IMG/VR virus record: IMGVR_UViG_3300044675_001501
Coordinates: 1-64,000 of that record
DNA length: 64,000 nt
Source of the DNA: a virus
Taxonomy: Duplodnaviria > Heunggongvirae > Uroviricota > Caudoviricetes
Reading direction: 5' to 3' (one strand)
In this document: positions 2,944 through 33,500 of the stretch, in pieces
How positions within the stretch are numbered: position 1 is the first letter of the stretch
Layout of the letters: every line of letters starts with the position of its first letter
Notes under the pieces: generated by a model
What the model was told of the DNA's origin: nothing
What the model saw: only the letters and a program-made list of their open reading frames with translations
Databases searched by the model: none
Program-made: the position numbers and the translations under genes

Positions 2944-3266
2944 GATAAGTTCTCTAGGACTTCTTTTTCTACAATAAATTTAGTATTGGGATAACGCTTA
3001 ACCATGGCTTCCAGCAAAGAATCTCTGGTGTTACCCTGAGCGATAAACTCATCGGTGTCATAGTTATATGCGAAAAGGAATCCCTGCTCTTTTTCGAAGT
3101 ATATACGGACTATCTCCTGGTCATCCTGGTGCTCTTCCATCTGATTGAGCATTTTCCTGACTTCATTCTTTGCAGTCAGTTCTCGTAATGCCCAACCAAG
3201 TTTATAGCACATCCAACCATAGAGTAGGATAAGTAATAGATCTAAGACGTTCATTTGAATTTGCAA
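2940..3266 (-). CDS. small membrane-anchored protein (108 aa) inserted between gp44 and gp62
   Basis: N-terminal hydrophobic helix (VLDLLLILLYGWMCYKLGWAL) followed by a charged soluble part. No T4 counterpart at this position. Confidence 0.45.
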   Translation of the reverse strand: MQIQMNVLDLLLILLYGWMCYKLGWALRELTAKNEVRKMLNQMEEHQDDQEIVRIYFEKEQGFLFAYNYDTDEFIAQGNTRDSLLEAMVKRYPNTKFIVEKEVLENLS

Positions 3267-4192
3267 TTTACCATTAGTTCAGTCAACGCTGCCATCATAT
3301 TTATTTCCTGATCAGCTACGAAAGCAGACTTGTACTGATAGTCTGCTAGGGTTACCACTAGCTGAGGGATAGATGATGGATCCATAATCTCAATTGCTTT
3401 GTCATAAAGATTACGGAAAATATGGGCAGTTCCCATATCAGCATTCTTACCAACCCAACGACGAATGTCTGTATACTTCTTCGTCTTTAGTAAATCTACA
3501 AGTTCTTTAAATGATTCATCACTAACATTCAGAAGAATACCAGAATCAATCTTACCTGAAACTGAATAACGCTGAAGTTCATTCAGAGTTCTACGGAAGT
3601 CTGGGAAATGTTTTGTGACGAGTTCAGCTACAACCTTAGAGTCAAACTCTACCTGTTCAGAAGATAGAATGTCAACAATACGCTTATAGAAAGCAGCTGC
3701 GATCTTTGGCTTCTCGCCATTGTCGATTTTAAAATCAACATTAATGCAGCGAGACTGAAGAGCATCAAGAAGACGATGCTTAAAATTACAAGTAAAGATG
3801 AAGCGGCAATTGCCAGCAAACTCTTCAATAAACGCACGCAATGCAGGTTGTACTGAGTCGGCATTCATATAATCAGCCTCATCAATAATAACAACCTTCT
3901 TTGCTTCTGTCAAAGAAACAGTTGAAGCAAAAGATTTAATAACAGTTCGGAGAGTGTCGATAGAACGACCTTCGTCCGAACCGTTAATCATCAAATATTC
4001 TGCGCCAACTTCATCACATAGTGCTTTTGCTACAGTAGTTTTACCAACACCAGCTGTTCCGCTGAAAATAAAATTAGGAAGTTCACCACTAGCGATGAAC
4101 TCCTTAAAAGTTTTCTTCAGAGATTCTGGTAAAATACAATCATCAATTTTCTGCGGACGATACTTCTCAACCCACAAATAGTGTTCACTCAT
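3251..4192 (-). CDS. 44: clamp-loader large subunit gp44 (AAA+ ATPase)
   Basis: Walker A GTAGVGKTT, Walker B VVIIDEAD, and an SRC motif (LQSRCINV). Co-linear with T4 gp44. Confidence 0.9.
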   Translation of the reverse strand: MSEHYLWVEKYRPQKIDDCILPESLKKTFKEFIASGELPNFIFSGTAGVGKTTVAKALCDEVGAEYLMINGSDEGRSIDTLRTVIKSFASTVSLTEAKKVVIIDEADYMNADSVQPALRAFIEEFAGNCRFIFTCNFKHRLLDALQSRCINVDFKIDNGEKPKIAAAFYKRIVDILSSEQVEFDSKVVAELVTKHFPDFRRTLNELQRYSVSGKIDSGILLNVSDESFKELVDLLKTKKYTDIRRWVGKNADMGTAHIFRNLYDKAIEIMDPSSIPQLVVTLADYQYKSAFVADQEINMMAALTELMVNCKFK

Positions 4193-4496: not shown

Positions 4497-5159
4497 TTAT
4501 TCAAATGTAGAGTCAGCTTCAACAGCAACGAAATAAACTAAATCTGAAGTAGAAGATTGGAAACGACTGATCTTCTTGTTAGAGATTGCGACAGAATAGT
4601 TTCCTGGGATCATCTTAAGATTATCTACCTTCAAGTTTACCTTGAACGATTTATCAGTGTCAGAAAGTGCAACTTCATAAGCATTAGCTGCTGCATTCTT
4701 TTTGTCAGCAACAACGATCTTCATTTTAGAACCATCACCAACTACGCTTACGTCAGCTGAGTGAAGAACAGAAGCAGTACGCTGAACCATAGCAAGAGTT
4801 GCTGCGGTTAAGTCAAAAGTAATATCTTCTGATGGCAGTTGAATCTGCTTTGCTGGAGGAATAGTCAAAGTGCCAGCATCAGCAGCATAGTAACGAATAG
4901 AGTTATTACCTTGCTTGATACGAACAGACTTCTCAGAGAACTCTAGATCGGGATCTTCAAACAAAGATAATGCGCCAAGGAATTCATTAAGATCATAGAT
5001 AGCAAACTCGCTATCGAAAGTCTCAGGAACTGTGATAGATGCCATCACGTTTTTCTGAGCAGAAATCGTTGCGAGTTTAGAACCTTCTTTGATCAAAAGG
5101 TTTCCATTAATGGATGCGAAATTCTTTAGAACTCCGACTGTTTCTTTAGATAACTTCAT
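4497..5159 (-). CDS. 45: sliding clamp gp45
   Basis: Strong similarity to T4 gp45 (MKLSKETVGVLKNFASING…AIYDLNEFLGALSL…VAVEADSTFE). The start is taken at the ATG matching the T4 N-terminus and has an AGGAG RBS. The ORF-track TTG start at 5174 adds 5 residues. Confidence 0.9.
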   Translation of the reverse strand: MKLSKETVGVLKNFASINGNLLIKEGSKLATISAQKNVMASITVPETFDSEFAIYDLNEFLGALSLFEDPDLEFSEKSVRIKQGNNSIRYYAADAGTLTIPPAKQIQLPSEDITFDLTAATLAMVQRTASVLHSADVSVVGDGSKMKIVVADKKNAAANAYEVALSDTDKSFKVNLKVDNLKMIPGNYSVAISNKKISRFQSSTSDLVYFVAVEADSTFE

Positions 5160-5198
5160 ATTTTCTCCTATCAATTAAACACATAACTATGTATATAC

Positions 5199-5228: not shown

Positions 5229-6032
5229 TTATTTTTGCATCATCAAAGCATTGAAGTTAGCAGGAACAACAATGGTCTGCACTCGACCATTCTTAATACC
5301 CTCAGAGATATTCAACGCAGCTTGAGCTTGCATAAAAGCAATAGAACTGGCAGAGTTATTGGCAAGAGCAGCCATACGCTCAGCTTCCTTCTTAGCAGTT
5401 TGAACCTCTACTTCTTTCTGCTTGTATTCATTCTTAGCACGAACCAAAGCATTAGCAGATTCAACAACACTGTCAGCTGGGACTACGTTACGAATTAAGA
5501 CTTGGCTAATTGTAATTGAACCATCAAGTTTTTCTTCAGCAAGATTCTTTTGAATCTCTTCTTGAATCATACGCTCCATATTCTCACGATTGTCTGCCAT
5601 ATCAAGTGCTTCATATTTACGAGCAGCTTTATAGATGGCATTACGAGCATTCTGAACAACGTAGTTATACATTACGTAGGTGTCACCCTTGAACTCAGCG
5701 TGGAATGCTTTGTTCTTAGTTGAGTAGAGTTCTGCTACAGTTTGTGGATTGATGTTGTAAACAACAACAGCATCTAGATCTTTCATAGTGCTATTATCTT
5801 TTGCTACTGGAGTCATATCCTGAAGGACTACGTTAACATCTTTCACTGGGAATGTCAAAACATCACCAATCATAGTTTGGTTAAAAGATCCAGGCAGCAA
5901 CTCTCCTGGTTTAACCTGCTTATCAAAGCCAACTCGAACACCAACCTCGCCTGTCTCAATACGAGTGCAGCCAGTAGCCAGAGCAACAGTAGCAACCAGA
6001 GCAGAGATTTTCAACATTTGTTTCATGATCAT
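5229..6032 (-). CDS. SPFH/band-7 (prohibitin/HflK-like) lipoprotein
   Basis: Signal peptide with a lipobox (LATGC), then a PHB-like domain and a long Ala/Glu-rich coiled-coil tail (…EYKQKEVEVQTAKKEAERMAALAN…). Confidence 0.65.
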   Translation of the reverse strand: MIMKQMLKISALVATVALATGCTRIETGEVGVRVGFDKQVKPGELLPGSFNQTMIGDVLTFPVKDVNVVLQDMTPVAKDNSTMKDLDAVVVYNINPQTVAELYSTKNKAFHAEFKGDTYVMYNYVVQNARNAIYKAARKYEALDMADNRENMERMIQEEIQKNLAEEKLDGSITISQVLIRNVVPADSVVESANALVRAKNEYKQKEVEVQTAKKEAERMAALANNSASSIAFMQAQAALNISEGIKNGRVQTIVVPANFNALMMQK

Positions 6033-6038
6033 TTTCCT

Positions 6039-6215
6039 TTAAAATAAAACAACAATACCAACCATAACAATTACAACCAAAGCAGAAATACCAAGAGAGT
6101 ATGCTGTAATTTTAGCAAGACTCAATTTTTCTTTGTTAGTCATTTTTCTAAACATGTCTATGCCAGTAAAGAAAATAATAAACAAAGAGATGAAAGCGAG
6201 AACTATCTTAATCAT
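6039..6215 (-). CDS. 58-aa membrane micro-protein (MIKIVLAFISLFIIFFTGIDMFRKMTNKEKLSLAKITAYSLGISALVVIVMVGIVVLF)
   Basis: Below the 60-aa cutoff of the ORF track. Two predicted TM helices. AAGGAAG RBS. Its ATG overlaps the upstream stop (ATGA), and it ends 7 nt before the SPFH gene. Confidence 0.45.
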   Translation of the reverse strand: MIKIVLAFISLFIIFFTGIDMFRKMTNKEKLSLAKITAYSLGISALVVIVMVGIVVLF

Positions 6216-6550
6216 TTTTCTTCCTTAGAATATTTTACATCATGCTCATATAGAAAGTAAAGGCAGCACATTGCATGCGCCAAATGATGAATACCAGATT
6301 CAGGATCTAATTGTTCACCTTCTTTCCACGCCCATAGATGTCTTTGCATAGCATCAAAGTATCTACGCTTAGAATCGGGAACAAATTTCCAGTTGTCTGG
6401 TTCATATTTTTCTGCTCCGAATGTAAGGACTTTAACCATTTCTTTCAGAGCGAGTGGTGGGACTAGCCCATATTGAAGTTTGCCACCATCAAACTTTCTA
6501 CCGCCAGTGGTAGAATTCTGAGATTGTTCAATTTCTTTTTTAGTTGCCAT
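6212..6550 (-). CDS. hypothetical protein (112 aa), possibly a phage dATP/dGTP-pyrophosphohydrolase-like small domain
   Basis: Conserved-looking core (…GGKLQYGLVPPLALKEMVKVLTFGAEKYEPDNWKF…SGIHHLAHAMCCLYFL) recalled from small phage nucleotide-hydrolase-like proteins. The assignment is tentative. Confidence 0.4.
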   Translation of the reverse strand: MATKKEIEQSQNSTTGGRKFDGGKLQYGLVPPLALKEMVKVLTFGAEKYEPDNWKFVPDSKRRYFDAMQRHLWAWKEGEQLDPESGIHHLAHAMCCLYFLYEHDVKYSKEEK

Positions 6551-6573
6551 AGATCCTCCAAGTGAGAATGACT

Positions 6574-6596
6574 ATGGGCACTCTAGGAATGCCCAT
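6574..6596 (-). other. intercistronic hairpin atgggca-N9-tgcccat
   Basis: Perfect 7-bp inverted repeat between ORF86 and ORF112. No U-run follows it. Confidence 0.35.
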
Positions 6597-6607
6597 AAGC
6601 AGGTCAC

Positions 6608-6868
6608 TTACGCAAAGAGACCAAGGCGATACGCAGCTGCTACCATCGCACGAGTAGGCTTACCAATGCGATACTTTACAACTGGCTCACCCTTACTATC
6701 GCTTTTAGAGTTTGCGTAAACGCAATAACCCTGCTCGCGAAGATTGCGAATAGCAGATGCGGGATGGGCGATACCGAACTGACCACGGATTTGTGAAGCA
6801 GTTAGTTCTTTACCATTTTGTAGAACCTGCAAAAGTTTAGATTGACGACTCATAGATTTAATCCTCAT
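6608..6868 (-). CDS. small DNA-binding protein (putative helix-turn-helix)
   Basis: 86 aa, basic, with an HTH-like segment (LTASQIRGQFGIAHPASAIRNLREQGY). Confidence 0.4.
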   Translation of the reverse strand: MRIKSMSRQSKLLQVLQNGKELTASQIRGQFGIAHPASAIRNLREQGYCVYANSKSDSKGEPVVKYRIGKPTRAMVAAAYRLGLFA

Positions 6869-6889
6869 TCAAGTCAATACCATCAAACG

Positions 6890-6929
6890 AAAAAAAGTCA
6901 AGAGTGGTGATGGCATTCCCACTCTTGAC
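6890..6929 (-). terminator. rho-independent terminator (11-bp perfect stem gtcaagagtgg/ccactcttgac followed by U7 on the minus strand)
   Basis: Stem and 11-nt loop seen directly. The A7 run on the plus strand corresponds to a U-run downstream on the minus-strand transcript. Confidence 0.7.
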
Positions 6930-6946
6930 TGTCAAACCAAGTCAGC

Positions 6947-7324
6947 TTAGACTTGGATACCGTTAGCACGAAGTTCTGCGGTAAACTCATCTTCATCGAT
7001 AGACACTGGCTCAGCGTCCTCGATAATTTTCTCGAGCTTCTTCTTAGCAGCAGCAGTTTGCTTAGCTACTGCATCTTTGACTGAACCTGTAGACTTCGGT
7101 CCAGGAAACGCAAAAACTCCACGCGAAATTGTGTTGTTAGCAGACAACCAAAGCGGATAACCAATTTTTGGAGCACCGTCGGTGCGCTTCTCATGAAGAT
7201 CCCAAAAAAGTTTTTGAACTTCTTTGGTCGTAATAGTCTCAGCCGAAGCAAGTTTCGGATTGAGAGAAATAAAAGCATCGATACAACGCTTTTGACCCTT
7301 AGACAAATCAGCATATTTCAGCAT
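6947..7324 (-). CDS. hypothetical protein (125 aa) sharing a motif with the N-terminus of the AAA+ ATPase
   Basis: 'KIGYPLWLSANNTISRGVFAFPGP' resembles 'KFPSWLMTNKVGRGLYAIPGG' of the ORF at 7451..8626. It has its own promoter and terminator. Confidence 0.5.
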   Translation of the reverse strand: MLKYADLSKGQKRCIDAFISLNPKLASAETITTKEVQKLFWDLHEKRTDGAPKIGYPLWLSANNTISRGVFAFPGPKSTGSVKDAVAKQTAAAKKKLEKIIEDAEPVSIDEDEFTAELRANGIQV

Positions 7325-7379
7325 AGTTTAACTCCTGTGTGTGTTAATAAAAAAGAAACTACTCAACTTTACAACTATA

Positions 7380-7408
7380 ATTATACCCCGACTGGGCATA
7401 AATGTCAA
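7380..7408 (-). promoter_or_regulatory. sigma70 consensus early promoter (TTGACA-N17-TATAAT) for ORF125
   Basis: Minus-strand gcTTGACAtttatgcccagtcggggTATAAT. Both hexamers are perfect. Confidence 0.65.
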
Positions 7409-7441
7409 GCATAACCCTACAGTTTGCAAGGTTATTTTCAG

Positions 7442-7464
7442 CCTTTAAAATCAAGGACTTACAG
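7442..7464 (-). repeat. copy 1 of a 23-nt element (minus strand CTGTAAGTCCTTGATTTTAAAGG) at the 3' end of the CobS-like gene
   Basis: Identical 23-mer also present at 11004..11026. This copy spans the TGA stop of the ATPase gene. Confidence 0.6.
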
Positions 7465-8626
7465 CCTCCCCTTCGGCTACAGGGGTTTCCACAGCGGCAG
7501 CTGAGGACTCTTCAACGTAATCGCCTGTCGAAACCTTTTCGAACAAGTCAACAAAGGCAAGGCGAGTAGCGTCATCAAATCGATTCGTGCAAAGTTCAAT
7601 TGCTTTCTTCTGATTCTTGAAGATCGCATAAGCACGAACGATGTGAATTAAACGGCGAGTAGTAATTGTTTCGTCAACACCACCAGCATCAAAAGTACGG
7701 CGAATAGCATCAGCCCACTTGACCATGTTCTCAGCAAACTTCTCATCAAAGCAACCGTAAGAAGTCATGAGATTAGTAACGATCTTCATCTCAGTACGCT
7801 GCTCAGGGTATTCCTGGTTGAAGGTAACAGCGAATCGCTCAAGAAATGCTTCGTTAAGAACATTGGTACCAATGTAACGACCATCTTCGCTACCCTTACC
7901 TTTTGTGTTTGCGGTAGCAAAAATATTGAAACCACGAGCAGGATAGATAAGTTCGTTTTTCAGTTTGAAGTAGAATGGCTTACCTTCAAGAATTGGCTGC
8001 AAGCACATCAGAGTATTTGAGTTACCAGCATCAATCTCATCAAGAAGCAGAGGAATACCAAGACGCATAGCAATAACGATTGGACCTTCAACGATTTCGA
8101 CATTACCATCGATCAAAGTCTTAGTGCCAATCAACTGATCTTCATCAGTCATGCTGTTAAAGTTAATACGAATCAGCGGACGCTTACGCTTTGCGCAAAT
8201 CTGCTCAATGCTGGTAGACTTACCGTTACCAGTTGGACCGCTGATGTAAGAAGGATAAAAGATCTCAGACTTGATAATCTCATCAAGATCTTTATAGTTA
8301 CCGAAGGGGACATAGTTAGGATCAACCTTCGGAATCAAAGATGAAGTGTCGCTATAATTCACAATAACATTCTCATTTTTTTCGGGAGCCAAAGCTGTAT
8401 TGCCAACAACTGGTGCTGTAATATTACCACCAGGAATAGCATACAAACCACGACCAACCTTGTTAGTCATAAGCCAAGAAGGAAACTTGTCAGTTCCGAA
8501 TGAAGTCATAACCTCAATCAATTGAGAGCGAGAAACGACACCCTTAGAAGAAACATCAGGGAACATCTCAAAAAGTTTGGTTTCAAACTCATCACGATAA
8601 GCAGCAGTAGTCATCAAAATCTCCAT
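7451..8626 (-). CDS. cobS: AAA+ ATPase, CobS/MoxR-like
   Basis: Walker A GPTGNGKST and Walker B LLLDEID. The size and context (paired with a vWA protein) resemble the cobS/cobT-like pairs of T4-like phages. Confidence 0.75.
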   Translation of the reverse strand: MEILMTTAAYRDEFETKLFEMFPDVSSKGVVSRSQLIEVMTSFGTDKFPSWLMTNKVGRGLYAIPGGNITAPVVGNTALAPEKNENVIVNYSDTSSLIPKVDPNYVPFGNYKDLDEIIKSEIFYPSYISGPTGNGKSTSIEQICAKRKRPLIRINFNSMTDEDQLIGTKTLIDGNVEIVEGPIVIAMRLGIPLLLDEIDAGNSNTLMCLQPILEGKPFYFKLKNELIYPARGFNIFATANTKGKGSEDGRYIGTNVLNEAFLERFAVTFNQEYPEQRTEMKIVTNLMTSYGCFDEKFAENMVKWADAIRRTFDAGGVDETITTRRLIHIVRAYAIFKNQKKAIELCTNRFDDATRLAFVDLFEKVSTGDYVEESSAAAVETPVAEGEAVSP

Positions 8627-8647
8627 AATAAAATTTACTACAATTAA

Positions 8648-8676
8648 ATTATACTAGCATTGGCAATTAATGTCAA
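8648..8676 (-). promoter_or_regulatory. sigma70 consensus early promoter (TTGACA-N17-TATAAT) for the AAA+ ATPase gene
   Basis: Minus-strand gcTTGACAttaattgccaatgctagTATAAT. Its extended -35 flank resembles the promoter at 7380..7408. Confidence 0.65.
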
Positions 8677-8690
8677 GCAAAATGCAAACT

Positions 8691-10943
8691 TTATGCAACC
8701 AGCCCAACAAAGCGATTCAGAAGGATCCGATTTGTCTTCTGAACATTCAGATACTTGTTGAACGCTTTTGCAATTTGCTTGCTATTCATCTTGTCAGAAA
8801 CTTCCAAGTCTTCATCTTTAATTGCAAGTTTAGACGAAGGGATAATATACAGTTCATCACGACCACAGTTTGTAAGCATAGCGAAGTCATTCTTACGAAT
8901 TTCTTTTTGCATTGCTTCAACCGTAGCCATATCCTCAATAGAACCACCCTTAGCAGAAGTAACATTGTTACGAACAAACCAAGTTAGATCACGGCGAGAA
9001 TTTCTACCGATGTAGAAACCAACAGTAGTAGCGTTATATCGATCTTTGATAATCTGCAGGAACACATTAGTTTGTGTGCTAGATTCCTGAGTGATACGAT
9101 ATTCTTTCTTAGTAATTGGATCAACCAAGTAGTTAAGAACTTTACAACGCTTGTACTCTGGCTCATATACGGTAACGTATTCACGAAGAGACTTGTGATG
9201 ATTACCGTGAAGAGTTCCACCCTCGCCATCAGTCAAAGTAATAAATGTCAGTTTCTCGACATTGTTCTTTGACTTAAACTCAGCAAGATGGTTAGTCATA
9301 AACAGCAACGCTTCATTAAGCGGAGTGCTATTAAGAGTCAATCTAGAACTATAATAATAGAAATTAGAAAGACACATCTGAACCATCTTAGTAAATTCAC
9401 TGTTAGTCATTTTATCAGTGAACAACTCAAGAAGGTAAACATCGGCATTGGTAAAACCGTTGAACGATACATCAGTCTCATCAGGAACTCTGGTATAAGG
9501 ATCTTCTGGGTACAGAATATCACCACGTTCGTTTCTAGGATAACGATCGAAACCATTGCTAAATGCGTAGACACGGAAAGGAATCTGTGCACGCTGGCAG
9601 AACATAACCAGAGTAATAGTTTGCTTCAGCGTATCATGAATGTTATCATACATTGAACCAGACCAGTCAAGCAACATAACCATACCGTGATTCTTTGTAT
9701 CTTTAGTAACAGAGATACGCTTAAAGATGTCATCGGTCAACTGATACATCGCCAGTTTGTTTACGTTCAAATTACCAGTCTTAGAAATTTTACTACGACG
9801 ATAAGCAGTAGCTGACTTACGCATTTCAAATTCTTTGACTAGATAATTGACGATACGGCTACTTTCAGACTTGAATTGTTGAGCAGCTGTGGTCATTCTA
9901 TTAGCAGCTTCTGCTCGCTCCTTATTTCTGTCTGCGTCTGTCAAATAACGATTTGCGAAGTGACGATCGAAGTCTTCATCAAAAACTTTGAAGATTTCTT
10001 TATAAGGTACAACCTGATTGACGTCACGCAAATTGGCAGTCTTAGGTTCCCAACGCTGAACAATAGTATTCGTATCTGCTAGGTCTTGAAGGCGAACACG
10101 CAGGGCACGTTCTGTTTGCGACTCCATTTCAGTGGTAGTCGGTAAGGTAGAAGTATTCTGTGTGTTATCACCAGCAACAAAACGCTTGTTAGAACTGTCA
10201 GACTGTTCTTCATGTTCTGTTTCAGTATAGGGATCATACTCGCCGTCAAAGAAGATTTCATCTTCATCTTCATCTTCATCAACATCACCGAACTCAATTT
10301 CGGTATCGTAATTCATTTGCTCTTCGATATCATCGAGATCTTCTTGAGTGAGTTCTTTGTTGGAGTTGAGTTCTTCCTTACGCTTTTTCAATTCCTCATA
10401 AGAAAAGTTGTAAACTTCAAGAGCAAGATTCTGCACGTCTTTGATAGTGTCGCACTTGTCAACTCGGCGAACAAGTTCCATTTCTTGCGGTGTAAACTTA
10501 ACACCAGAGTTGATGCCAACTTTGTAATAGATGTTGATGCGGTCAATCAGCAAAAGTTTGCTGAGGTCTTTGTCTTTAACTTCAAAGAAGTCTTTGTCGT
10601 TGAGGTATTTGTATCCAGCAATAAAGCATTTACGCAAGCCAGGATACTTGTTCTTCATCATTTTTTCAATGCGAACATCTTCAATCACATTAAGATAACT
10701 GTGCATCTTGTGGTAGTTTTCTGTTTGAAGGTATTCTTGAGAAGTGAACAAAGCATGCCCAACCTCATGGGAAATGAGCATGTCCTCCACATCTTCGTTC
10801 ATTTCTTTCCAAAGAGGGAGGACTAGTGTACGACTGGTGATATCAAATGAAGCAGTAGTCGTTCTTGCGCGAACCACGTTCAGGTTCTCGGCTGCAAGAA
10901 GGCGAGCAAGCATGTCCTTACTATTCATAATGTAGGTCTCCAA
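8691..10943 (-). CDS. cobT: vWA-domain protein (CobT-like) with an N-terminal HExxH metallopeptidase-like motif and an acidic linker
   Basis: HEVGH with a downstream Glu (…NVIEDVRIE). A poly-acidic stretch DEDEDEDE. A vWA MIDAS motif VMLLDWSGSM. 750 aa. Confidence 0.7.
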   Translation of the reverse strand: METYIMNSKDMLARLLAAENLNVVRARTTTASFDITSRTLVLPLWKEMNEDVEDMLISHEVGHALFTSQEYLQTENYHKMHSYLNVIEDVRIEKMMKNKYPGLRKCFIAGYKYLNDKDFFEVKDKDLSKLLLIDRINIYYKVGINSGVKFTPQEMELVRRVDKCDTIKDVQNLALEVYNFSYEELKKRKEELNSNKELTQEDLDDIEEQMNYDTEIEFGDVDEDEDEDEIFFDGEYDPYTETEHEEQSDSSNKRFVAGDNTQNTSTLPTTTEMESQTERALRVRLQDLADTNTIVQRWEPKTANLRDVNQVVPYKEIFKVFDEDFDRHFANRYLTDADRNKERAEAANRMTTAAQQFKSESSRIVNYLVKEFEMRKSATAYRRSKISKTGNLNVNKLAMYQLTDDIFKRISVTKDTKNHGMVMLLDWSGSMYDNIHDTLKQTITLVMFCQRAQIPFRVYAFSNGFDRYPRNERGDILYPEDPYTRVPDETDVSFNGFTNADVYLLELFTDKMTNSEFTKMVQMCLSNFYYYSSRLTLNSTPLNEALLFMTNHLAEFKSKNNVEKLTFITLTDGEGGTLHGNHHKSLREYVTVYEPEYKRCKVLNYLVDPITKKEYRITQESSTQTNVFLQIIKDRYNATTVGFYIGRNSRRDLTWFVRNNVTSAKGGSIEDMATVEAMQKEIRKNDFAMLTNCGRDELYIIPSSKLAIKDEDLEVSDKMNSKQIAKAFNKYLNVQKTNRILLNRFVGLVA

Positions 10944-10959
10944 GTTTATTACAGTTAGA

Positions 10960-10988
10960 ATTATGCCCTATTTATGAATTAAAAGCAA
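10960..10988 (-). promoter_or_regulatory. sigma70-like promoter (TTGCTT-N17-CATAAT) for the vWA gene
   Basis: Minus-strand cTTGCTTttaattcataaatagggCATAAT with a 17-nt spacer. Confidence 0.45.
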
Positions 10989-11003
10989 GTCTTGCATATT
11001 TGT

Positions 11004-11026
11004 CCTTTAAAATCAAGGACTTACAG
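11004..11026 (-). repeat. copy 2 of the 23-nt element, 4 nt after the gp46 stop
   Basis: Exact match to 7442..7464. Confidence 0.6.
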
Positions 11027-11030
11027 AGGG

Positions 11031-12749
11031 TTATGGTGCTGACATGACTGAAAAATCGTTCTTCTTTTCGAACTTTACCACACTATGAAACTTGTCAAAT
11101 AGTTGGTCGCCCTTGTGAGAAATTACAAAAACATTAGTCTTTTCGCCCAACTGATTCATCACACTCAAGAAATAGTCAGTTCCTGCTGTGTCTAGAGATG
11201 AATCAAAGATCTCATCCAAGATAAGTAGGTTAGTGTTAACTGAGTTCTTCATCTTCGCAATCTGTCGCCAAGTAAACAAGATAGCCAAGTCAATACGCAT
11301 CTTCTCACCTTCTGAGAAACTCGCATAGGTAAACTCATCACGGAATCTAGACTTAATAGTTTCGTTGAATGATTCATCTAATTCAAAGTGAACATAGAAG
11401 TCCATAGCCTGTAGATACATGTTAATTAACTTGTTCATAGCAGGTAGATATTCTTTGATCACCGCAGTCTTAATTCCAGTGTCCTTTAGTAAGGTAGCTG
11501 AGATTTCTTGAATAGTTCTTTCTTCGCTTAGGACTGTCTTTCTGTCCAGGAACTGCATAGCAGCTTTCGCTAACTCCTTCAACTTAACTTTTTCAGCATC
11601 AATACTTTCAGTGTTAGACTTTGTGTTTTCTATTTCCTGAAGGAGTTTAGTGTTCTGAGAGTTTAGAGTTGAGATTGTGCTATTCATAGTTGAGATTTCA
11701 ATGTTTAACTCAGAGATCTCAGTAACTATGTCATCTATTTGCTTCAATCTAGTTCCTAGATCTTCTAGTCTAGTTTTGATACTATCTTTCTCTGTCTGAT
11801 TAATCTCAAGATCAGCAGTTAAAGTAGTCGCAATCTTTTCAGCATGGGAATGTGGGATGTTCTGATCGCAAGATGGGCACTGGTCGTTTGACGAAAAGAA
11901 TCTAACTCTTTCGTTTAGATCAGAAACTTTTTGATTAATCTTTACCAAAGTTTCTTTAAATGAGGCAATCCCCTCAGTAACAGCTTGCTTATCTGCTATA
12001 TCCTCTCGTAATTCCTTAACTCGATTAGATAGTTCCGTAAGAGTTGTTGTTGTGGTATGAATCTCAGCTTCGTTTGATTGAATTCTTGTTCTAATAGAAT
12101 CAAGGTGCTCTTTCTTTGAAGTAACGAGGCTAGAGATGATCTTCTGTTGAGACTCCACTGCTGACTTTGAAATTTGTAGCTGCGATTCGACATTAGCCAA
12201 TTCCTCTTTGGTTGCTTGTACTTTTTCTTTTAAGAGTTGATTCATCGTAGAGAAAATCTTAATGTCTAAGATATCTTCAATAACTTCTCTACGCTGACCA
12301 GAAGGTAACTGCATAAATGGAACAAATGATGCGCTACCCAGAATAACAACCTGAGTAAATGTCTTATAGTTTAGTTTTAAGATTTGTTGCTCTAGAATCT
12401 TTTGGTAATCCTTAGAGGCAGCATCTTGATTGATTAGATTGTCGTTGTGATAGATCTCAAACAAGTTTGGTTTGATACCACGCTTGATAACATAGTTGTT
12501 TGAGGCAATAGAAAATTCTACTACAACCAAACACTGCTTTTGATTGATGCTGTTGACTAGCTGCCCTTTGTTAATGTTTCTAAATGGTTTTCCGAATAGA
12601 GCAAAACAAAGAGCATCTAGAATAGTCGATTTACCGTCACCATTCTTACCAACAATCAATGTTGACTGCGAACGATTAAGTAAAACTTTATTTGGGGAAT
12701 TGCCTGTTGATAAAAAGTTTTTCCATTCTATAGATTTAAATACGATCAT
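11031..12749 (-). CDS. 46: recombination endonuclease subunit gp46 (SbcC/Rad50-like ATPase)
   Basis: N-terminal Walker A GKNGDGKST, long coiled-coil middle, a CPSC zinc-hook-like motif, and C-terminal signature and D-loop (LLILDEIFDS). Confidence 0.85.
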   Translation of the reverse strand: MIVFKSIEWKNFLSTGNSPNKVLLNRSQSTLIVGKNGDGKSTILDALCFALFGKPFRNINKGQLVNSINQKQCLVVVEFSIASNNYVIKRGIKPNLFEIYHNDNLINQDAASKDYQKILEQQILKLNYKTFTQVVILGSASFVPFMQLPSGQRREVIEDILDIKIFSTMNQLLKEKVQATKEELANVESQLQISKSAVESQQKIISSLVTSKKEHLDSIRTRIQSNEAEIHTTTTTLTELSNRVKELREDIADKQAVTEGIASFKETLVKINQKVSDLNERVRFFSSNDQCPSCDQNIPHSHAEKIATTLTADLEINQTEKDSIKTRLEDLGTRLKQIDDIVTEISELNIEISTMNSTISTLNSQNTKLLQEIENTKSNTESIDAEKVKLKELAKAAMQFLDRKTVLSEERTIQEISATLLKDTGIKTAVIKEYLPAMNKLINMYLQAMDFYVHFELDESFNETIKSRFRDEFTYASFSEGEKMRIDLAILFTWRQIAKMKNSVNTNLLILDEIFDSSLDTAGTDYFLSVMNQLGEKTNVFVISHKGDQLFDKFHSVVKFEKKNDFSVMSAP

Positions 12750-13069
12750 TTATCTTTCCATTTCCATCCAAGCATGAACTCAGTATATTTTCTATTAAGC
12801 CAACTTGGTTTCTCAGTTCTCCATATTTGGATACTTTCAGTAACCTGCCAATAACCAATAGAGTCAGGCGATGGTATAAACTGAAAAGAAGGAGAAGTGT
12901 TTATTGTTGTACTACCTGTTAAACCATTCGCAACCAAGTAACTAGAAACAGTGTTTAAAGAAACTAGATTAGATTTCTGTCTTTGATAATCTTCGCATGG
13001 TGAATAGTCAAGATTCAGCGGAATCTGCTCCGTCAGCGGAAAGAAATATCTTATTTCTAATTGTTGCAT
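12746..13069 (-). CDS. hypothetical protein (107 aa) between gp47 and gp46
   Basis: Occupies the position of the T4 46.1/46.2-like small ORFs. Overlapping start and stop codons. Confidence 0.45.
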   Translation of the reverse strand: MQQLEIRYFFPLTEQIPLNLDYSPCEDYQRQKSNLVSLNTVSSYLVANGLTGSTTINTSPSFQFIPSPDSIGYWQVTESIQIWRTEKPSWLNRKYTEFMLGWKWKDK

Positions 13070-14133
13070 TAGACCACCTCAACATTAATTGCCTCAGTAT
13101 AAAGAGACTTCATATAAGTTTTGACTTTCTCTTTGTCAGTATCTGTTTGAACAGAGTCGATGTAATCATTTAGCAAATCAACAGTGTCCTCAAGATTTAT
13201 GTCTGACGAAACTGCGCCTTCATTGTATTCAGAGAAGTCTTCAATAATTTTGATCTCGGCGCATCCTTTATTATATAACTGTTGAAGGAATTGGTCAAAC
13301 TTGTAATAATCAGTCTTGTTAACAACTACAACTTTAACGAAACAATTTTTTAAGTCGAGTAGCGAAATGTCTTGGACTTCGCTGGTGTCGTCGTACTCGA
13401 ATCTTGTAAACATACTATAATCGTTTCTGATAAACTCGAGTTGTCTGGTCCCAAGGTCAAACAAGTGAAACCCTCTGGGATCGTTATAGTCCTGCCACGT
13501 GAGCTCATAAGGATTTCCGAGGTAAAAGATATGACCGTCGTTAGAGCGATGATGGTAATGACCACTGAATACCATATCAAATTTTTTGAATAGATCTTTT
13601 CCGAGTCCCTCATGAGATTCCATCCCTCTATACATTGCGAAGCCAGCAATCTCAAAGTGCCCCATACAAAGAGTTGCTGATGTGTTATTGATTTCATCCA
13701 TCGCTCTTTGATAGTTGTCTGCGCATATCCAAGGAATCATGCAAACATCGCAATCAATATCTTCATAGTTGAGATGAATTGTTTGTGGGGTGTCGATTAC
13801 GTTGATGTTGTCGTACTCTCTTAAGAGTAGATCTGGTGAGTTTACATCGTTGGTGTTTTTGTAATAAGTGTCGTGATTACCAGCAAGCATATGAACTTGA
13901 ATTTCTCGCTTGGCTAGTTCATCAAAGAACATTCTCTTTGCTCTGTCAAGAGCATAGAAATTTACATACTTACGTCGATCAAAAGTATCGCCAAGAATAA
14001 GAACAGTATTAATACCAGCTGCGTCAAGACTAGGAAAGAAAATATTGTCATAGAATTTTTGAAAAAAGTCTAGAAATAAAACACTGTCATTACGAGCACC
14101 AAAATGTTGGTCAGTTATAATAGCAACTTTCAT
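13069..14133 (-). CDS. 47: recombination endonuclease subunit gp47 (Mre11/SbcD-like phosphoesterase)
   Basis: Calcineurin-like phosphoesterase motifs (DQHFG…GDTFD…GNHD…GHYH). Confidence 0.85.
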   Translation of the reverse strand: MKVAIITDQHFGARNDSVLFLDFFQKFYDNIFFPSLDAAGINTVLILGDTFDRRKYVNFYALDRAKRMFFDELAKREIQVHMLAGNHDTYYKNTNDVNSPDLLLREYDNINVIDTPQTIHLNYEDIDCDVCMIPWICADNYQRAMDEINNTSATLCMGHFEIAGFAMYRGMESHEGLGKDLFKKFDMVFSGHYHHRSNDGHIFYLGNPYELTWQDYNDPRGFHLFDLGTRQLEFIRNDYSMFTRFEYDDTSEVQDISLLDLKNCFVKVVVVNKTDYYKFDQFLQQLYNKGCAEIKIIEDFSEYNEGAVSSDINLEDTVDLLNDYIDSVQTDTDKEKVKTYMKSLYTEAINVEVV

Positions 14134-17903: not shown

Positions 17904-19211
17904 TTACATTAGGTTAGAAACGAATACCTTACGGAAGTAGTAGTTACTTGCTGACTGTAGGTTTGAACCATTTCCGTCTAGTTGAACGAATGGGTTAGAA
18001 ACCATACCGTAGCGAGTCTTGAAGCCAATCTTAGGCTGGAAGCTCTCTGGATCAACTGCACGAACCAACTGTAGTGGAACGTATGGGCAGTAGAATAGAC
18101 CAGCGTCGAATGCGGAAGCACCCTTATAGCCAACCATGAAGAATTGGTTGTTACCACCGTTACCTGCATATGGATCAACATATACACGGAAACGACCGTT
18201 TAGAACACCTGCGAAGGTAGTTGATGCTTCATCGATTGCTAGACCTTTGTTTGCTTCTAGAGCTGGAGTGTAATCTAGTACACCTGCCATTGCTAGAGCA
18301 GAAGCAACATCAGAAGAACAAACGATAAAGTTACCCTTACCACGACGTGTTTGCTGAGCAATTACGTTAGCATCACGTTCGATTTGGAACATTAGTCCCT
18401 TGAACTTTTCAACGCTCCAACGACCATTAGCGTCAACGTCTAGGTCAAAAGTACCTGCTGATGCTGTACCAGCTTGTGCACCTGGCTTAGCAACTTTGTA
18501 AACAGTACGGATGACTTCACGGTTGATTTCAGCAAGAATCTCAGTTGAGAGAATGTTGCTTAGTTCGCCTTCAGCATCTAGACCATGAACGCTCTTTAGA
18601 TCTTGAGCAAGTTCAATAGTGTATTCTGCTTTTAGAGCACGGCTCTTAGCAGTAACACTGGTCTTTTCGATTGAGAAAGACATCTCGTTGAAAGTACCGT
18701 CACCAGTACCACCAGCGCCTAATGCTTCAGCAGCAGCGGTTGTTAGACCAGTACCGTTGGTAGCATTGTTAGCTGTTGGTTCACCAGTTGAGTGAGTACC
18801 TGTACCAGAGAAATCTGTATCTGCTTCGTTGAAGAGAGCTTCAGTACCATTTTGTGCACTGTAACGGCTCTTCATTGCGAAGATTAGACCTGTTGGTTGT
18901 GTCATTGGCTGAACACCGCAGATGTCATAAGCGATCATCTGTGGCATTGCGCGACGGACTAGGCTGATTAGAACTGGGTCGTAACCTGCCATTTGTGCAT
19001 TAGTACCAGCACCGCCAAGAGCGATACCAGAACCACCTGCGTTAACGTGAGTACCAGTTTCGAAAAGTGCTGACTTTTCTTCTTTAAGAGCCTTTTCTTG
19101 GTTCTCTAGAAGAACTGCAGTAACTTCCTTACGGTAGTTGTCTCTAATTCCTGGCAGAGAGTCATGCTCTAGGATTGGCTGCCATTTCTTTAATAGATCT
19201 TGACGATTCAT
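17904..19211 (-). CDS. 23: major capsid protein gp23
   Basis: 'LLKKWQPILE…VRRAMPQMIAYDICGVQPM…' and the C-terminal 'FQPKIGFKTRYG…' are co-linear with T4 gp23. It is shorter (435 aa) than T4 gp23. Confidence 0.9.
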   Translation of the reverse strand: MNRQDLLKKWQPILEHDSLPGIRDNYRKEVTAVLLENQEKALKEEKSALFETGTHVNAGGSGIALGGAGTNAQMAGYDPVLISLVRRAMPQMIAYDICGVQPMTQPTGLIFAMKSRYSAQNGTEALFNEADTDFSGTGTHSTGEPTANNATNGTGLTTAAAEALGAGGTGDGTFNEMSFSIEKTSVTAKSRALKAEYTIELAQDLKSVHGLDAEGELSNILSTEILAEINREVIRTVYKVAKPGAQAGTASAGTFDLDVDANGRWSVEKFKGLMFQIERDANVIAQQTRRGKGNFIVCSSDVASALAMAGVLDYTPALEANKGLAIDEASTTFAGVLNGRFRVYVDPYAGNGGNNQFFMVGYKGASAFDAGLFYCPYVPLQLVRAVDPESFQPKIGFKTRYGMVSNPFVQLDGNGSNLQSASNYYFRKVFVSNLM

Positions 19212-30557: not shown

Positions 30558-33500
30558 TTATGCTTGTGATTCAGTCCAAGACAGACGGCAAGAAGCAGCG
30601 AACGTAGCAGCAGCAGTAACGTCAGAAGCTAGACCAATGTATCTCATACGTAGAGTCAATACGTCTGGACCGTCAGGGAATACACCGTTACCGCCCATAA
30701 TAGAGTTACCAAGAGTTGCAATTTCACGTAGGTCAATAGAGGTCAATGCTTGAGCTCTGTTGTTTGGTGTTGTCAACTGGTTTCCAGGTGGAACACGGAA
30801 CGAGAAGATAACAGAACCTTGGTCAATTGTGTCAGAAATGTTATGGTAAACAACCTGACTCAATGAAGGAGCAGTAACACGCTTCCAATCCAAGTTATCC
30901 AAGTCAGCATTCAGAACCAGAGACAATTCAATCTCGTGGGTTGAAAGAACGTCAAGAGCTTTCAAGTTCAATTGCATGCGGTTAATAATTTCTCTTTCTC
31001 CAAGTAATCCTGGAATACCATTATCAACAGAAGGCGATAGACGTAAAGACAATAGAGGAATTGTTTTAGTCAAATCAACAGCCTGTGAAACTGTATATGT
31101 AGTATTTGTCGCTTGGATAGAAGAAGGTCTTGCGTTAACAACCAATAAGTTTTTAAGAATATTAGATGTTGGAGAAACTCTGACCTGACGCAAATATGGT
31201 TGACTACCGATAGATGAGTTGGTTGGGTTTGCAGTTAATGTACCAGCAACAATACCATTTCCTGATATACCAGAATTAGCATTAATAGAAAAATATGTAT
31301 CTGCATGAGTAGGAATTTCAATAGCAAAACCAATTTCACCAATCAGCTTACCGCCATTGTTATAAGCATACCATTTTCCTAGTTCGAATGCGTTACCAGC
31401 TGTAACTCCACCAGCTGCGGCAAGACTTGGTGCTACTGCGGTACAAACAAAACTTGTTCCAACGTTGTTGTTTGCTGCTCCATATGAAGTCCAAGTTGTT
31501 GATCCTGCCGTATTAATTGTATAAGAACGACCGATAACTAAATTGTTTGCTGTAAAGGTTTGAGATACTGATGCTTGTGTTCCACCAGTAACGCTAATTG
31601 TGCCAGAAGTACCAGTAGAAGTACGAATCTGGTTAGAAGTAGCGGAGAACAAGTATGCTTTATCGTCATCGAAACCACCGTCCATAATAACGGAAGTACC
31701 CCAGTGTGCAAGTTTAGGTATAAAGGAAGGAGAAACGCCAGTATCAACCTCATAGCGAGCTGGCAGGTTACCCGAACGTAGGTACGCTTCTGTTTCTAAG
31801 TTGTTGTGGACAATTTGGTGTACGTATCTAACAACACCATCAGTAGTTTTAAATCCAAAACGAACTTTACCAGCGCCATACCAAGAATAGTCCATGTAAG
31901 CCATCTGAATCTTACGAATATCTAAAGTATATCCTGTTGGACCACTTCCATTACATACATCTAAATTCCAGCTTGATTGTGGAACTCTAATCTCATTAGT
32001 CTTACTTACTACAACATTAGTTGATGTAGAACCTCTATATGATGGTTGAACATAGAACGTATTGTTGTTTGGAATTTCAATAACTTTATATGATTGTCCT
32101 TTAATTACAACATAATCTCCAGAGACTAATTCTGTTACGTATTGTGTTCCTGTTCCTACAATTTGATTGCTGTTAAAAATAACACTTGCAGTTCCACCTA
32201 GCTGAACTGTAGAATTTCTTCTGCATACGCTAAGAGTCGAACCATTATATTCAAAGAACATACCATTTTGATCATCAAATAAACCACAACGAACTGTTGC
32301 GTTATTCCAAGAATTTACGTAGAATTGTGGGCGACCGCTGGAAACGTTGCTATATGGGAAATTCAAACTAATTCTAAATGAATAATCATCTATAATGTCA
32401 TAAATTGTGAACGATCCATTATAGGTAGATCCAGTATCCCCAGAAATAGTAATGTCTAGACCAGCAGTACATCTGTGAGGAACACGAGTAGTTACTGTTG
32501 CATAGTAGTTACTATTACCTGTAACTGAGTTAATAGGTACTGAAGGGCTGAAGTTAATAGCAAACGAAACTTGAATGCCTTTACCTGACTGATAACGGAA
32601 ATACTTACGAGTCTGACGAACAACACGTGCGTTCGGAGAATCTGTTGAGATTAATTCAACACCACCGTCATATGGTCTATGTAACGCTGATGAGTCAGCA
32701 CGCAACAATAGACTAGAAGTAACATCATAGGTGTTTGTTGCTGGGAATCCGTGACAGTTTATTGCGTTTACAGTAGAAGCTGTTGTTGTTGCTGGGATAG
32801 TTGCAGTCGCAGCAGCATTAGTTTGCATAGTAACAACAATAGAAGTGCTATTGCTACCAGCATTAGTTTTGACAATTAATGGAATATTGTCAATCTGAGT
32901 TGTATTACCAGTTCCTGTTAAAACAATGACAGAGCCAGCAGGGAATGGGCAAGGCATTGGGAAAGCGACAGTAATATCTGGGCTGGCGCTTGTTAGTGAT
33001 ATAGAAGTTACTGGCAATTTATATTGTTCATTAATTGGGATAGTATCAACTAAGTTTAACACAGTGCGTGAGTTGACTGTGCTAATTAGAGAAACACCAG
33101 TATTTCCAGGAACAATTAAAGAAACAGTGTGAACACCTGAACCACCAGAAGCAACGATCAAGTTAGTCCCATTTACTGCATCATTATAGGTAGGAGCTAA
33201 GTTGAAGTCGGCAGCTGACGCCCATCTTACATAGTAGATACCACCGTTAATTAGACCAGTTGGTGCAGCAACAGTAGAGTTCCAGCGTACAGACATGCCT
33301 GTCAACATACCGTGCGCAGCACTAGTAAATGTTGAAGAAACGAAAGTTGTTGTTTTTGCAGTGTAAACTGCTGGGTAATTCCAATAGAAGTTATCGCCAG
33401 ATTTAAACGCAGTTGAGAAGTTTGTGTTATTACCAACTACCTTAGTTGTTCCTGCTGCTAGTGCAATAGTACCAGCACCAACAATAGAACCAACAACAGA

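Follow-up and report, generated by a model that had tools for sequence, protein, structure and literature searches.

A CobS-like ATPase, a zincin-vWA adaptor and a free-standing winged-helix-like domain among the replication genes of an uncultured T4-like phage

The cobS gene is a recognized core gene of cyanophages. Throughout the oceans, a CobS-like gene is found about once in each myo-cyanophage genome; it serves as a marker of myo-cyanophage diversity and is routinely counted as an auxiliary metabolic gene for vitamin B12. In Kyanoviridae and a pelagiphage, it is paired with a gene annotated as a 'peptidase' (phrog_249 and phrog_459, respectively). The same gene pair has been handled as cobST (Liu et al. 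2021), and a MoxR-vWA pair with an N-terminal metallopeptidase has been described in T4-like jumbo phages (Iyer et al. 2021, Viruses). A literature search found no experimental work on phage cobS. Here we describe a related three-gene module in a 64,000-nucleotide stretch from a virus of the class Caudoviricetes (IMG/VR record IMGVR_UViG_3300044675_001501, positions 1 to 64,000; hereafter the window). It encodes a zincin-linker-vWA protein, which we call the adaptor, a CobS-like AAA+ ATPase and a 125-residue protein, ORF125. We tentatively favor a model in which this module, the 'CobS + peptidase' (cobST-like) core feature of T4-like phages from marine and fresh waters (cyanophages, pelagiphages and uncultured aquatic relatives), is an ATP-driven protease or remodeler that acts early in infection and not a cobalt chelatase.

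The pair in the window belongs to the same two families as the pair in Kyanoviridae and the pelagiphage and occupies the same position between gp46 and gp45. It shares with that pair the HExxH, ED.RIE and DWSGSM motifs and a similar N-terminal extension of the ATPase. The adaptor matches phrog_459 with E = 5.4e-186 (residues 7-750 against profile positions 5-736 of 736), and tblastn found it in 464 phage records (in 411, over nearly the whole length), where it is annotated as 'peptidase'. Almost all of these carriers are Synechococcus and Prochlorococcus myoviruses, joined by Pelagibacter phage HTVC008M, and their adaptors are 31-35% identical to that of the window; in metagenomes, we found more than 6,793 homologue clusters. 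The ATPase matches phrog_249 ('porphyrin biosynthesis', CobS-like; E = 5.1e-102), and its closest phage match is the 'cobalt chelatase subunit' of HTVC008M, at 51% identity, with the isolated phages in general at about 50%. A megablast search with the 4-kb region found no DNA match among 50,697 phage records, and the module therefore has no close sequenced relative. In contrast to the isolated phages, the clade represented by the window adds ORF125, for which tblastn against the same 50,697 records found nothing. The first-pass annotation had recognized the architecture and the kinship of ORF125 with the ATPase, both of which stand, but it also held that a peptidase-like head lies outside the usual cobS/cobT annotation of phage genes. 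That claim to novelty fails, as PHROGs and hundreds of cyanophage records already label the protein a 'peptidase'. The gene pair and its peptidase-like head are thus already known. What appear to be new are the live HExxH of the phage family as against the dead one of CobT, the homology of ORF125 to the N-domain of the ATPase, and the fact that a large uncultured clade keeps the three genes in a conserved arrangement.

The adaptor begins with a domain whose motif HEVGH, noted in the first-pass annotation as HEVGH…E, is followed by the helix E83-D84-V-R86-I-E88 (Table 1). Residues H54, E55, H58, E83, D84, R86 and E88 do not vary in either of two alignments, one of 34 and the other of 93 sequences. 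The combination of HExxH with a downstream ED.RI[ED] occurs in every one of the 120 top homologues, in three further metagenomic relatives, in the pair at locus L088, and in the phages S-RIM12, P-HM1, HTVC008M and Ochrobactrum phage OC. Conservation of the HExxH in orthologues had been proposed as a check on the motif, and it was kept in all those checked, with H54, E55 and H58 unchanged from 100% down to 31% identity. A second proposed check concerned the fold. An AlphaFold2 model of residues 1-190 was confident (predicted local distance difference test (pLDDT) score, 92.3; predicted template modeling (pTM) score, 0.87) and placed the HExxH within helix 45-61, following strands 17-37; a fold search with this model matched zincins only. 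The head thus has the family-wide conserved HExxH on a helix after a small β-sheet that is expected of a zincin. Both E83 and E88 are candidates that could provide a third metal ligand, and the helix on which they lie could supply either a metal ligand or a surface for docking to the ATPase. The active site looks live, and we propose hydrolase activity, from sequence, because the catalytic Glu is invariant in the phage family while the motif has fully decayed in CobT; the activity would be that of a peptidase.

CobT is the closest described counterpart in domain plan. [quoted passage not shown] The phage protein shares this plan of M48C-like head, acidic linker, pre-vWA segment and vWA domain with a MIDAS, down to a near-identical numbering of the MIDAS (D421/S423/S425 in the phage protein). 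Set side by side by description, the topology of the modeled head equals that of CobT_N as published, although no CobT chain was among the fold-search matches of the head (library up to April 2026). Since CobT_N is itself M48C-like, a peptidase-like head belongs to the genuine CobT architecture. The active-site motif is what sets the two apart. Where the phage protein reads SHEVGHALFT, Sphingomonas CobT reads ADAFALRLKLHD, and none of the 81 CobT sequences from Sphingomonadales has an HExxH within its first 250 residues (ADAFALR stands there instead). The helix that bears the HExxH is the topological equivalent of helix α2 in CobT, which carries the CobS contacts I72, R76 and D80 (bioRxiv 10.64898/2026.07.21.739949). 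A residue-level mapping of the HExxH to R76 and D80 was given up, as the register shifts by 0-2 residues between alignments.

At the level of sequence, the similarity between the phage adaptor and CobT is marginal. The Pfam models CobT (PF06213) and CobT_C (PF11775) gave no match to the phage protein at E up to 10, whereas they matched a Sphingomonas CobT control with E = 2e-85 and E = 1e-104, respectively. In hhalign comparisons with a CobT profile, the full-length protein scored 64.8% (E = 6e-5) and the head alone E = 0.012 (residues 76-106 to CobT 90-120), both marginal and obtained with a shallow profile, for which the genome scan gave Sphingomonadales sequences alone, at an identity of at least 67%. 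The E83-E88 segment is the sole part of the N-domain that aligns with true CobT (VETARIE). An Acinetobacter CobT_C-family protein was matched more clearly (93.7%, E = 1.8e-7), and an Acinetobacter plasmid CobT-family protein has QEVAK at the HExxH position.

Plasmids, too, carry homologues of the CobS-like ATPase (4,416 records), and most of these are conjugative plasmids of enterobacteria. On one phage-plasmid of A. baumannii (L005; NZ_CP046537, 88994-92311), the partner is the CobT-family protein that has lost its HExxH (QEVAK), and the ATPase adjoins dnaE and carries an N-terminal Ros/MucR-like C2H2 zinc finger in place of the phage N-domain.

A serious rival, if an unlikely one, is that the module is a MoxR-vWA chaperone that cleaves nothing. 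The zincin head would then be a metal-stabilized docking or recognition domain, and the machine would remodel a complex, for example a replication or metallo-enzyme complex. RavA-ViaA, CbbQ-CbbO, NorQ-NorD and CobST work in this way, by remodeling and metal-site maturation; CobT_N is a dead zincin that docks to CobS and CobN; and the E..R.E helix is common to the phage head and CobT. However, the catalytic Glu is dispensable for metal binding alone, and yet it is invariant in the phage proteins down to 31% identity, whereas the motif has decayed entirely in CobT. This difference argues for cleavage by the phage machine.

As the first-pass annotation described, a stretch rich in Asp and Glu follows the head (about residues 190-290), and it varies in length and sequence between homologues. 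The nearly invariant pre-vWA segment aligns in hhalign to the CobT region directly before the MIDAS. It is the positional counterpart of the CobT 'shaft' and α0'-α0 helices and may be equivalent to them in function. The MIDAS motif DWSGSM, also noted earlier, is present (D421-W-S423-G-S425) and is completed by T535 in STPLNE and D567 in LTDGEG; these residues are invariant in the alignment, and DWSGSM occurs in 119 of the 120 top homologues. Curated models see none of this. The adaptor had no Pfam match, not even when its halves were searched separately with a limit of E = 10, and nothing in NCBIfam or PADLOC; its vWA domain was matched by neither the VWA nor the CobT_C model of Pfam; and the family profile against all PDB sequences returned low-complexity noise alone, with no CobT chain.

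The ATPase is, as first annotated, a MoxR/CobS-like AAA+ protein with intact Walker A and Walker B motifs and matches to AAA_5 (E = 8e-16) and CbbQ_C (E = 4e-5). An AAA_5 ATPase with a CbbQ/NorQ-type C terminus therefore lies next to a vWA protein that bears a MIDAS, as in MoxR-vWA pairs. Among solved structures, it matches CobS along the entire AAA+ module (PDB 9ujv; E = 4e-28, residues 86-376 against CobS 28-323) as well as midasin, CbbQ and NorQ. The helices α8-α10 of CobS, on which CobT_N docks, are present; E308 and R312 survive as D and K, respectively, whereas D263 and E317 are not retained. The score against the equivalog model TIGR01650 is 106.3 bits, far from its cut-off of 558.55, and Pfam CobS_N, which matches a Sphingomonas CobS control, does not match the phage protein. 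By sequence, the phage ATPase belongs with the MoxR ATPases of the CobS clade but is no CobS equivalog.

The extra domain at the N terminus of the ATPase, which is missing from true CobS (CobS aligns from residue 86 only), links it to ORF125. This domain is common to the metagenomic relatives and to the CobS of HTVC008M; the CobS of cyanophages has a differently diverged N-terminal extension of winged-helix appearance. The first-pass annotation had seen a shared motif in ORF125 and the ATPase N terminus, and the resemblance is borne out. BLASTP aligned the two at 37% identity over 46 residues (E = 2e-6); hhalign of the two family alignments gave a probability of 98.2% (E = 3.2e-14) over 62 columns, nearly the whole domain; and a hidden Markov model (HMM) of ORF125, run against all six-frame open reading frames (ORFs) of the window and seven further loci, found only ORF125 orthologues and the N termini of CobS-like ATPases, including that of HTVC008M. 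Among profile methods, the relationship is significant only in profile-profile comparison and in small-database HMM searches; with an ORF125 profile against 1.84 billion representatives, the CobS-like ATPases were not reached at E < 1e-3. A search with the N-terminal 142 residues of the ATPase yielded mostly gene fragments from short contigs, and these were used as N-domain sequences only. Together, these comparisons support the view that ORF125 is a free-standing paralogue of the ATPase N-domain.

ORF125 is a conserved gene in its own right. It has 23 close homologues, and the cluster representatives that match at E < 1e-3 number 135, with lengths of 80-180 residues in nearly every case; searches of NCBIfam, PADLOC and Pfam (the last with split domains and a limit of E = 10) yielded no match to it. 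In the window and in the related loci L006, L007, L090, L091 and L092, a member of the ORF125 family follows immediately downstream of the ATPase gene, and in L002 and L003 it lies between the two large genes. Some family members terminate in AT-hook-like RGRP motifs. In a different phage (L088/L089), an ORF125-like domain is fused to a classical AAA+ protein (336 residues, 6001-7011) that is encoded 1.4 kb upstream of that phage's own pair of HExxH-vWA (701 residues) and winged-helix-CobS-like (370 residues) proteins (8458-11710). This arrangement is a two-ATPase version of the module. The conserved residues of the ORF125 and N-domain families coincide (GYP.WL and RG.Y.P), which suggests that the two domains share a ligand.

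A conserved third component is one of several features that the module has in common with the MoxR-vWA chaperones and ternary conflict systems of bacteria (Kaur et al. 2020, eLife; Iyer et al. 2021). Both have adjacent genes for a MoxR AAA+ protein and a vWA co-chaperone, a charged linker and an effector-type peptidase fused to the vWA protein, and the L088/L089 relative adds a second, classical AAA+ protein, as the ternary systems do. In the bacterial ternary systems, however, the effectors sit on the C-terminal side of the vWA domain, most of them resemble caspases or trypsin and they are often inactive, and the third components (VMAP, iSTAND, FtsH) are unrelated to ORF125. No PADLOC defense model matched the module.

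In the protease/remodeler model, the ATPase would form a hexamer on which the adaptor docks as CobT does on CobS, with its head on the C-terminal helical subdomain and its pre-vWA segment placed in the pore of the ring. The MIDAS would capture a target protein, ATP hydrolysis would remodel it, and the zincin head would cleave this target, or a partner, early in infection. The winged-helix-like domain would lead the machine to its ligand, either DNA or protein, and ORF125, with the same conserved surface (GYP.WL...RG.Y.P), would compete for that ligand; alternatively, ORF125 might bridge the ligand to another partner through its conserved C-terminal helix. The first-pass annotation had likewise proposed a substrate-binding N-domain and ORF125 as a decoy or adaptor; both are putative roles. 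If this model is true, the ecological reading of viral 'cobS' needs revision, and the pair would represent a novel kind of machine for host takeover by phages, one whose relatives reside on thousands of plasmids.

A more specific version, which we consider improbable as it stands, is that a DNA- or nucleoid-directed, ATP-driven protease is built from the CobS-like ATPase, a zincin-vWA adaptor with a live active site, and the winged-helix-like modules, both the fused one and the free one (ORF125), and that it removes or processes a host protein early in infection. Candidate targets would be a repressor, a nucleoid protein or a defense factor, in the manner of ArdC, IrrE and CapP-type zincins, and true CobT would be a derivative whose active site decayed into an ATPase-docking surface. 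The protease domain of ArdC, IrrE/PprI, ImmA-like CapP and the M48/M56 minigluzincins are DNA-linked small regulatory zincins. However, they have no sequence similarity to the phage head and, unlike it, are not coupled to an AAA+/vWA machine. Were this version correct, the much-cited auxiliary metabolic gene 'cobS' of cyanophages would not be metabolic.

The standard annotation of the phage pair implies a different function, in which the two proteins are CobS and CobT subunits that use the CobN of the host and raise (pseudo)cobalamin for B12-dependent nucleotide synthesis. CobS is both the top NCBIfam match and the top full-length solved-structure match of the ATPase, and the adaptor has the domain plan of CobT; moreover, many hosts have CobN but not CobS and CobT, for which viral CobST could substitute (Liu et al. 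2021). Compared with CobSTN (PDB 9ujv, 9uka, 21vu), the phage module does share the AAA+ module, the adaptor plan and the CobT_N-docking helices. However, the pair is also present in pelagiphage HTVC008M, whose host, SAR11, is a B12 auxotroph. In addition, the HExxH that is invariant in the phage proteins is lacking in real CobT, the winged-helix-like domain and ORF125 have no chelatase counterpart, the curated models for CobS and CobT are not matched, and the module has no CobN context but lies amid replication genes; the literature itself calls the function of the phage genes unknown. Four points, namely the auxotrophy of SAR11, scores that fall short of the equivalog models, the HExxH that looks live and the additional domains, weaken the chelatase annotation to the point that we regard it as doubtful for the phage pair at large, although a chelatase role may apply in cyanobacterial hosts. 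The HExxH contrast, the winged-helix-like domain of the ATPase and its free copy provide handles to separate a chelatase from a protease or remodeler.

The window represents a portion of a T4-like phage genome, and the module, which sits among replication and recombination genes, lies on the minus strand, as do all the genes in Table 1. The three ORFs exist as the first-pass annotation described them. The order gp47-gp46-vWA-ATPase-...-gp45-gp44 is common to cyanophages, a pelagiphage and metagenomic relatives, and the vWA and ATPase genes are adjacent and on the same strand between gp46 and gp45 in the window, HTVC008M, S-RIM12, P-HM1 and the metagenomic relatives. As this synteny is shared and the GC content of the region is unremarkable, we regard it as a conserved stretch of the replication-gene block and have dropped the earlier description of an early-gene island.

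This setting bears on a last alternative, a virion-assembly chaperone with peptidolytic processing of structural proteins, which was proposed for the same architecture in T4-like jumbo phages (Iyer et al. 2021) and has an analogy in the MoxR-vWA system required for tail development of the archaeal virus ATV, but which is very unlikely here given the perfect early-type σ70 promoters of the ATPase and ORF125 genes, the location of the module between gp46/47 and gp45/44 and outside the structural block with gp23, and winged-helix-like targeting domains that hardly point to capsid or tail substrates.

Table 1. Coordinates of the module, its sequence elements and neighboring genes within the 64-kb window
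Feature	Position	Strand	Remarks
gp23	17904-19211	minus	structural block
gp47	13069-14133	minus	
gp46	11031-12749	minus	
23-nt element CTGTAAGTCCTTGATTTTAAAGG, second exact copy	11004-11026	minus	after gp46 stop
Weak promoter-like site TTGCTT-17-CATAAT	10960-10988	minus	upstream of vWA gene; non-consensus
Three genes under study (vWA, ATPase, ORF125)	6947-10943	minus	ORF list
Zincin-linker-vWA protein	8691-10928	minus	745 aa; phrog_459 'peptidase'; phage 'CobT-like'
N-terminal zincin-fold domain	10359-10928	minus	aa 1-190; helix α1, three-stranded sheet, then helices
HEVGH (H54-E55-x-x-H58)	10755-10769	minus	zincin metal-binding/catalytic-type motif
E83-D84-V-R86-I-E88 helix	10665-10682	minus	
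Acidic low-complexity linker	10059-10361	minus	about aa 190-290; gapped, D/E-rich in all aligned homologues
Pre-vWA segment FK.ES.R.VNYLVKEFEMRKSA..Y.R...SK.G.L	9744-9875	minus	aa 352-395; nearly invariant in alignments
vWA domain	8694-9716	minus	complete MIDAS; conserved C-terminal extension
MIDAS motif DWSGSM	9651-9668	minus	
Perfect σ70-type promoter TTGACA-17-TATAAT	8648-8676	minus	upstream of ATPase; 12/12
CobS-clade MoxR AAA+ ATPase	7451-8626	minus	391 aa
Extra ATPase N-terminal domain	8387-8626	minus	about aa 1-80 (residues 1-85 outside CobS alignment); motif FPSWLMTNKVGRGLYAIPG
Walker A GPTGNGKS	8216-8239	minus	
Walker B LLLDEID	8033-8050	minus	
23-nt element CTGTAAGTCCTTGATTTTAAAGG	7442-7464	minus	overlaps ATPase stop codon
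Perfect σ70-type promoter TTGACA-17-TATAAT	7380-7408	minus	upstream of ORF125; 12/12
ORF125	6947-7324	minus	
ORF125 winged-helix-like domain	7085-7324	minus	aa 1-80; paralogous to ATPase N-domain; long helix next
ORF125 conserved C-terminal helix DEDEF.AELRANGI.V	6950-7003	minus	
Intrinsic terminator after ORF125	6889-6930	minus	inverted repeat; 12-bp stem, loop GAATGCCATCA, seven-T run
HTH_39 winged-helix protein	6608-6868	minus	86 aa; Pfam; weak MreA-family match
dGTP_diPhyd_N protein (dATP/dGTP diphosphohydrolase N-domain)	6212-6550	minus	Pfam
Transmembrane protein	6039-6215	minus	58 aa; between module and gp45
SPFH/Band_7 protein	5229-6032	minus	lipoprotein-type signal (…LATGC); between module and gp45
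gp45	4497-5174	minus	
gp44	3251-4192	minus	

Two further details of the first-pass annotation required revision, whereas its ORFs, motifs and ORF125 similarity were otherwise sound. The first is the start of the adaptor gene, which had been placed at TTG 10943 (750 residues) by a mechanical ORF call. This TTG overlaps the GGAG ribosome-binding site of a downstream ATG, and homologues open with MNSKD, so the true start is almost certainly ATG 10928. The called start of the ATPase also overlaps a GGAG ribosome-binding site of a downstream ATG (8614-8626), and the second ATG, at 8614, is possibly the start of that gene. Plus-strand ORFs within the genes (for example, 8670-8987 and 10212-10826) were disregarded, as they overlap conserved minus-strand coding sequence.

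The second is the claim of a consensus promoter for each gene, which holds for the ATPase and ORF125 genes (12 of 12 positions each) but not for the vWA gene. The site upstream of the latter falls below the threshold of the promoter scan; a similar site is kept in L006 and L007. There are three perfect promoters in the whole window, and seven sites with at most one mismatch, against 1.06 expected, all on the coding strand.

The strong terminator that follows ORF125 has a counterpart at L002:9612-9650, where a hairpin with the same loop core (AATGCCATC) follows the ATPase gene in another gene order. Since the same loop core closes the module there, the loop sequence itself may be conserved.

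The two copies of CTGTAAGTCCTTGATTTTAAAGG bracket the vWA and ATPase genes as an exact direct repeat. The element or a degenerate form of it is found at gene ends in relatives (L007:10467-10489; a tandem pair at L002:7449-7510), and it always precedes a short hairpin and an early-type promoter. An insertion scar was considered and rejected, as relatives whose genes are ordered differently carry the element at the ends of other genes; it looks instead like a recurrent intergenic regulatory or recombination element.

Downstream of the module, the genes for the HTH_39 protein and the dGTP_diPhyd_N protein are syntenic with it in L002, L006, L007 and L091, and the HTH_39 protein may belong to the module as its fourth component. 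A Band_7 gene is found at the equivalent place in L091. Elsewhere in the window, two giant minus-strand ORFs (30558-39899, 3,113 residues; 45419-55813, 3,464 residues) have no Pfam family above threshold and presumably encode structural or fiber proteins.

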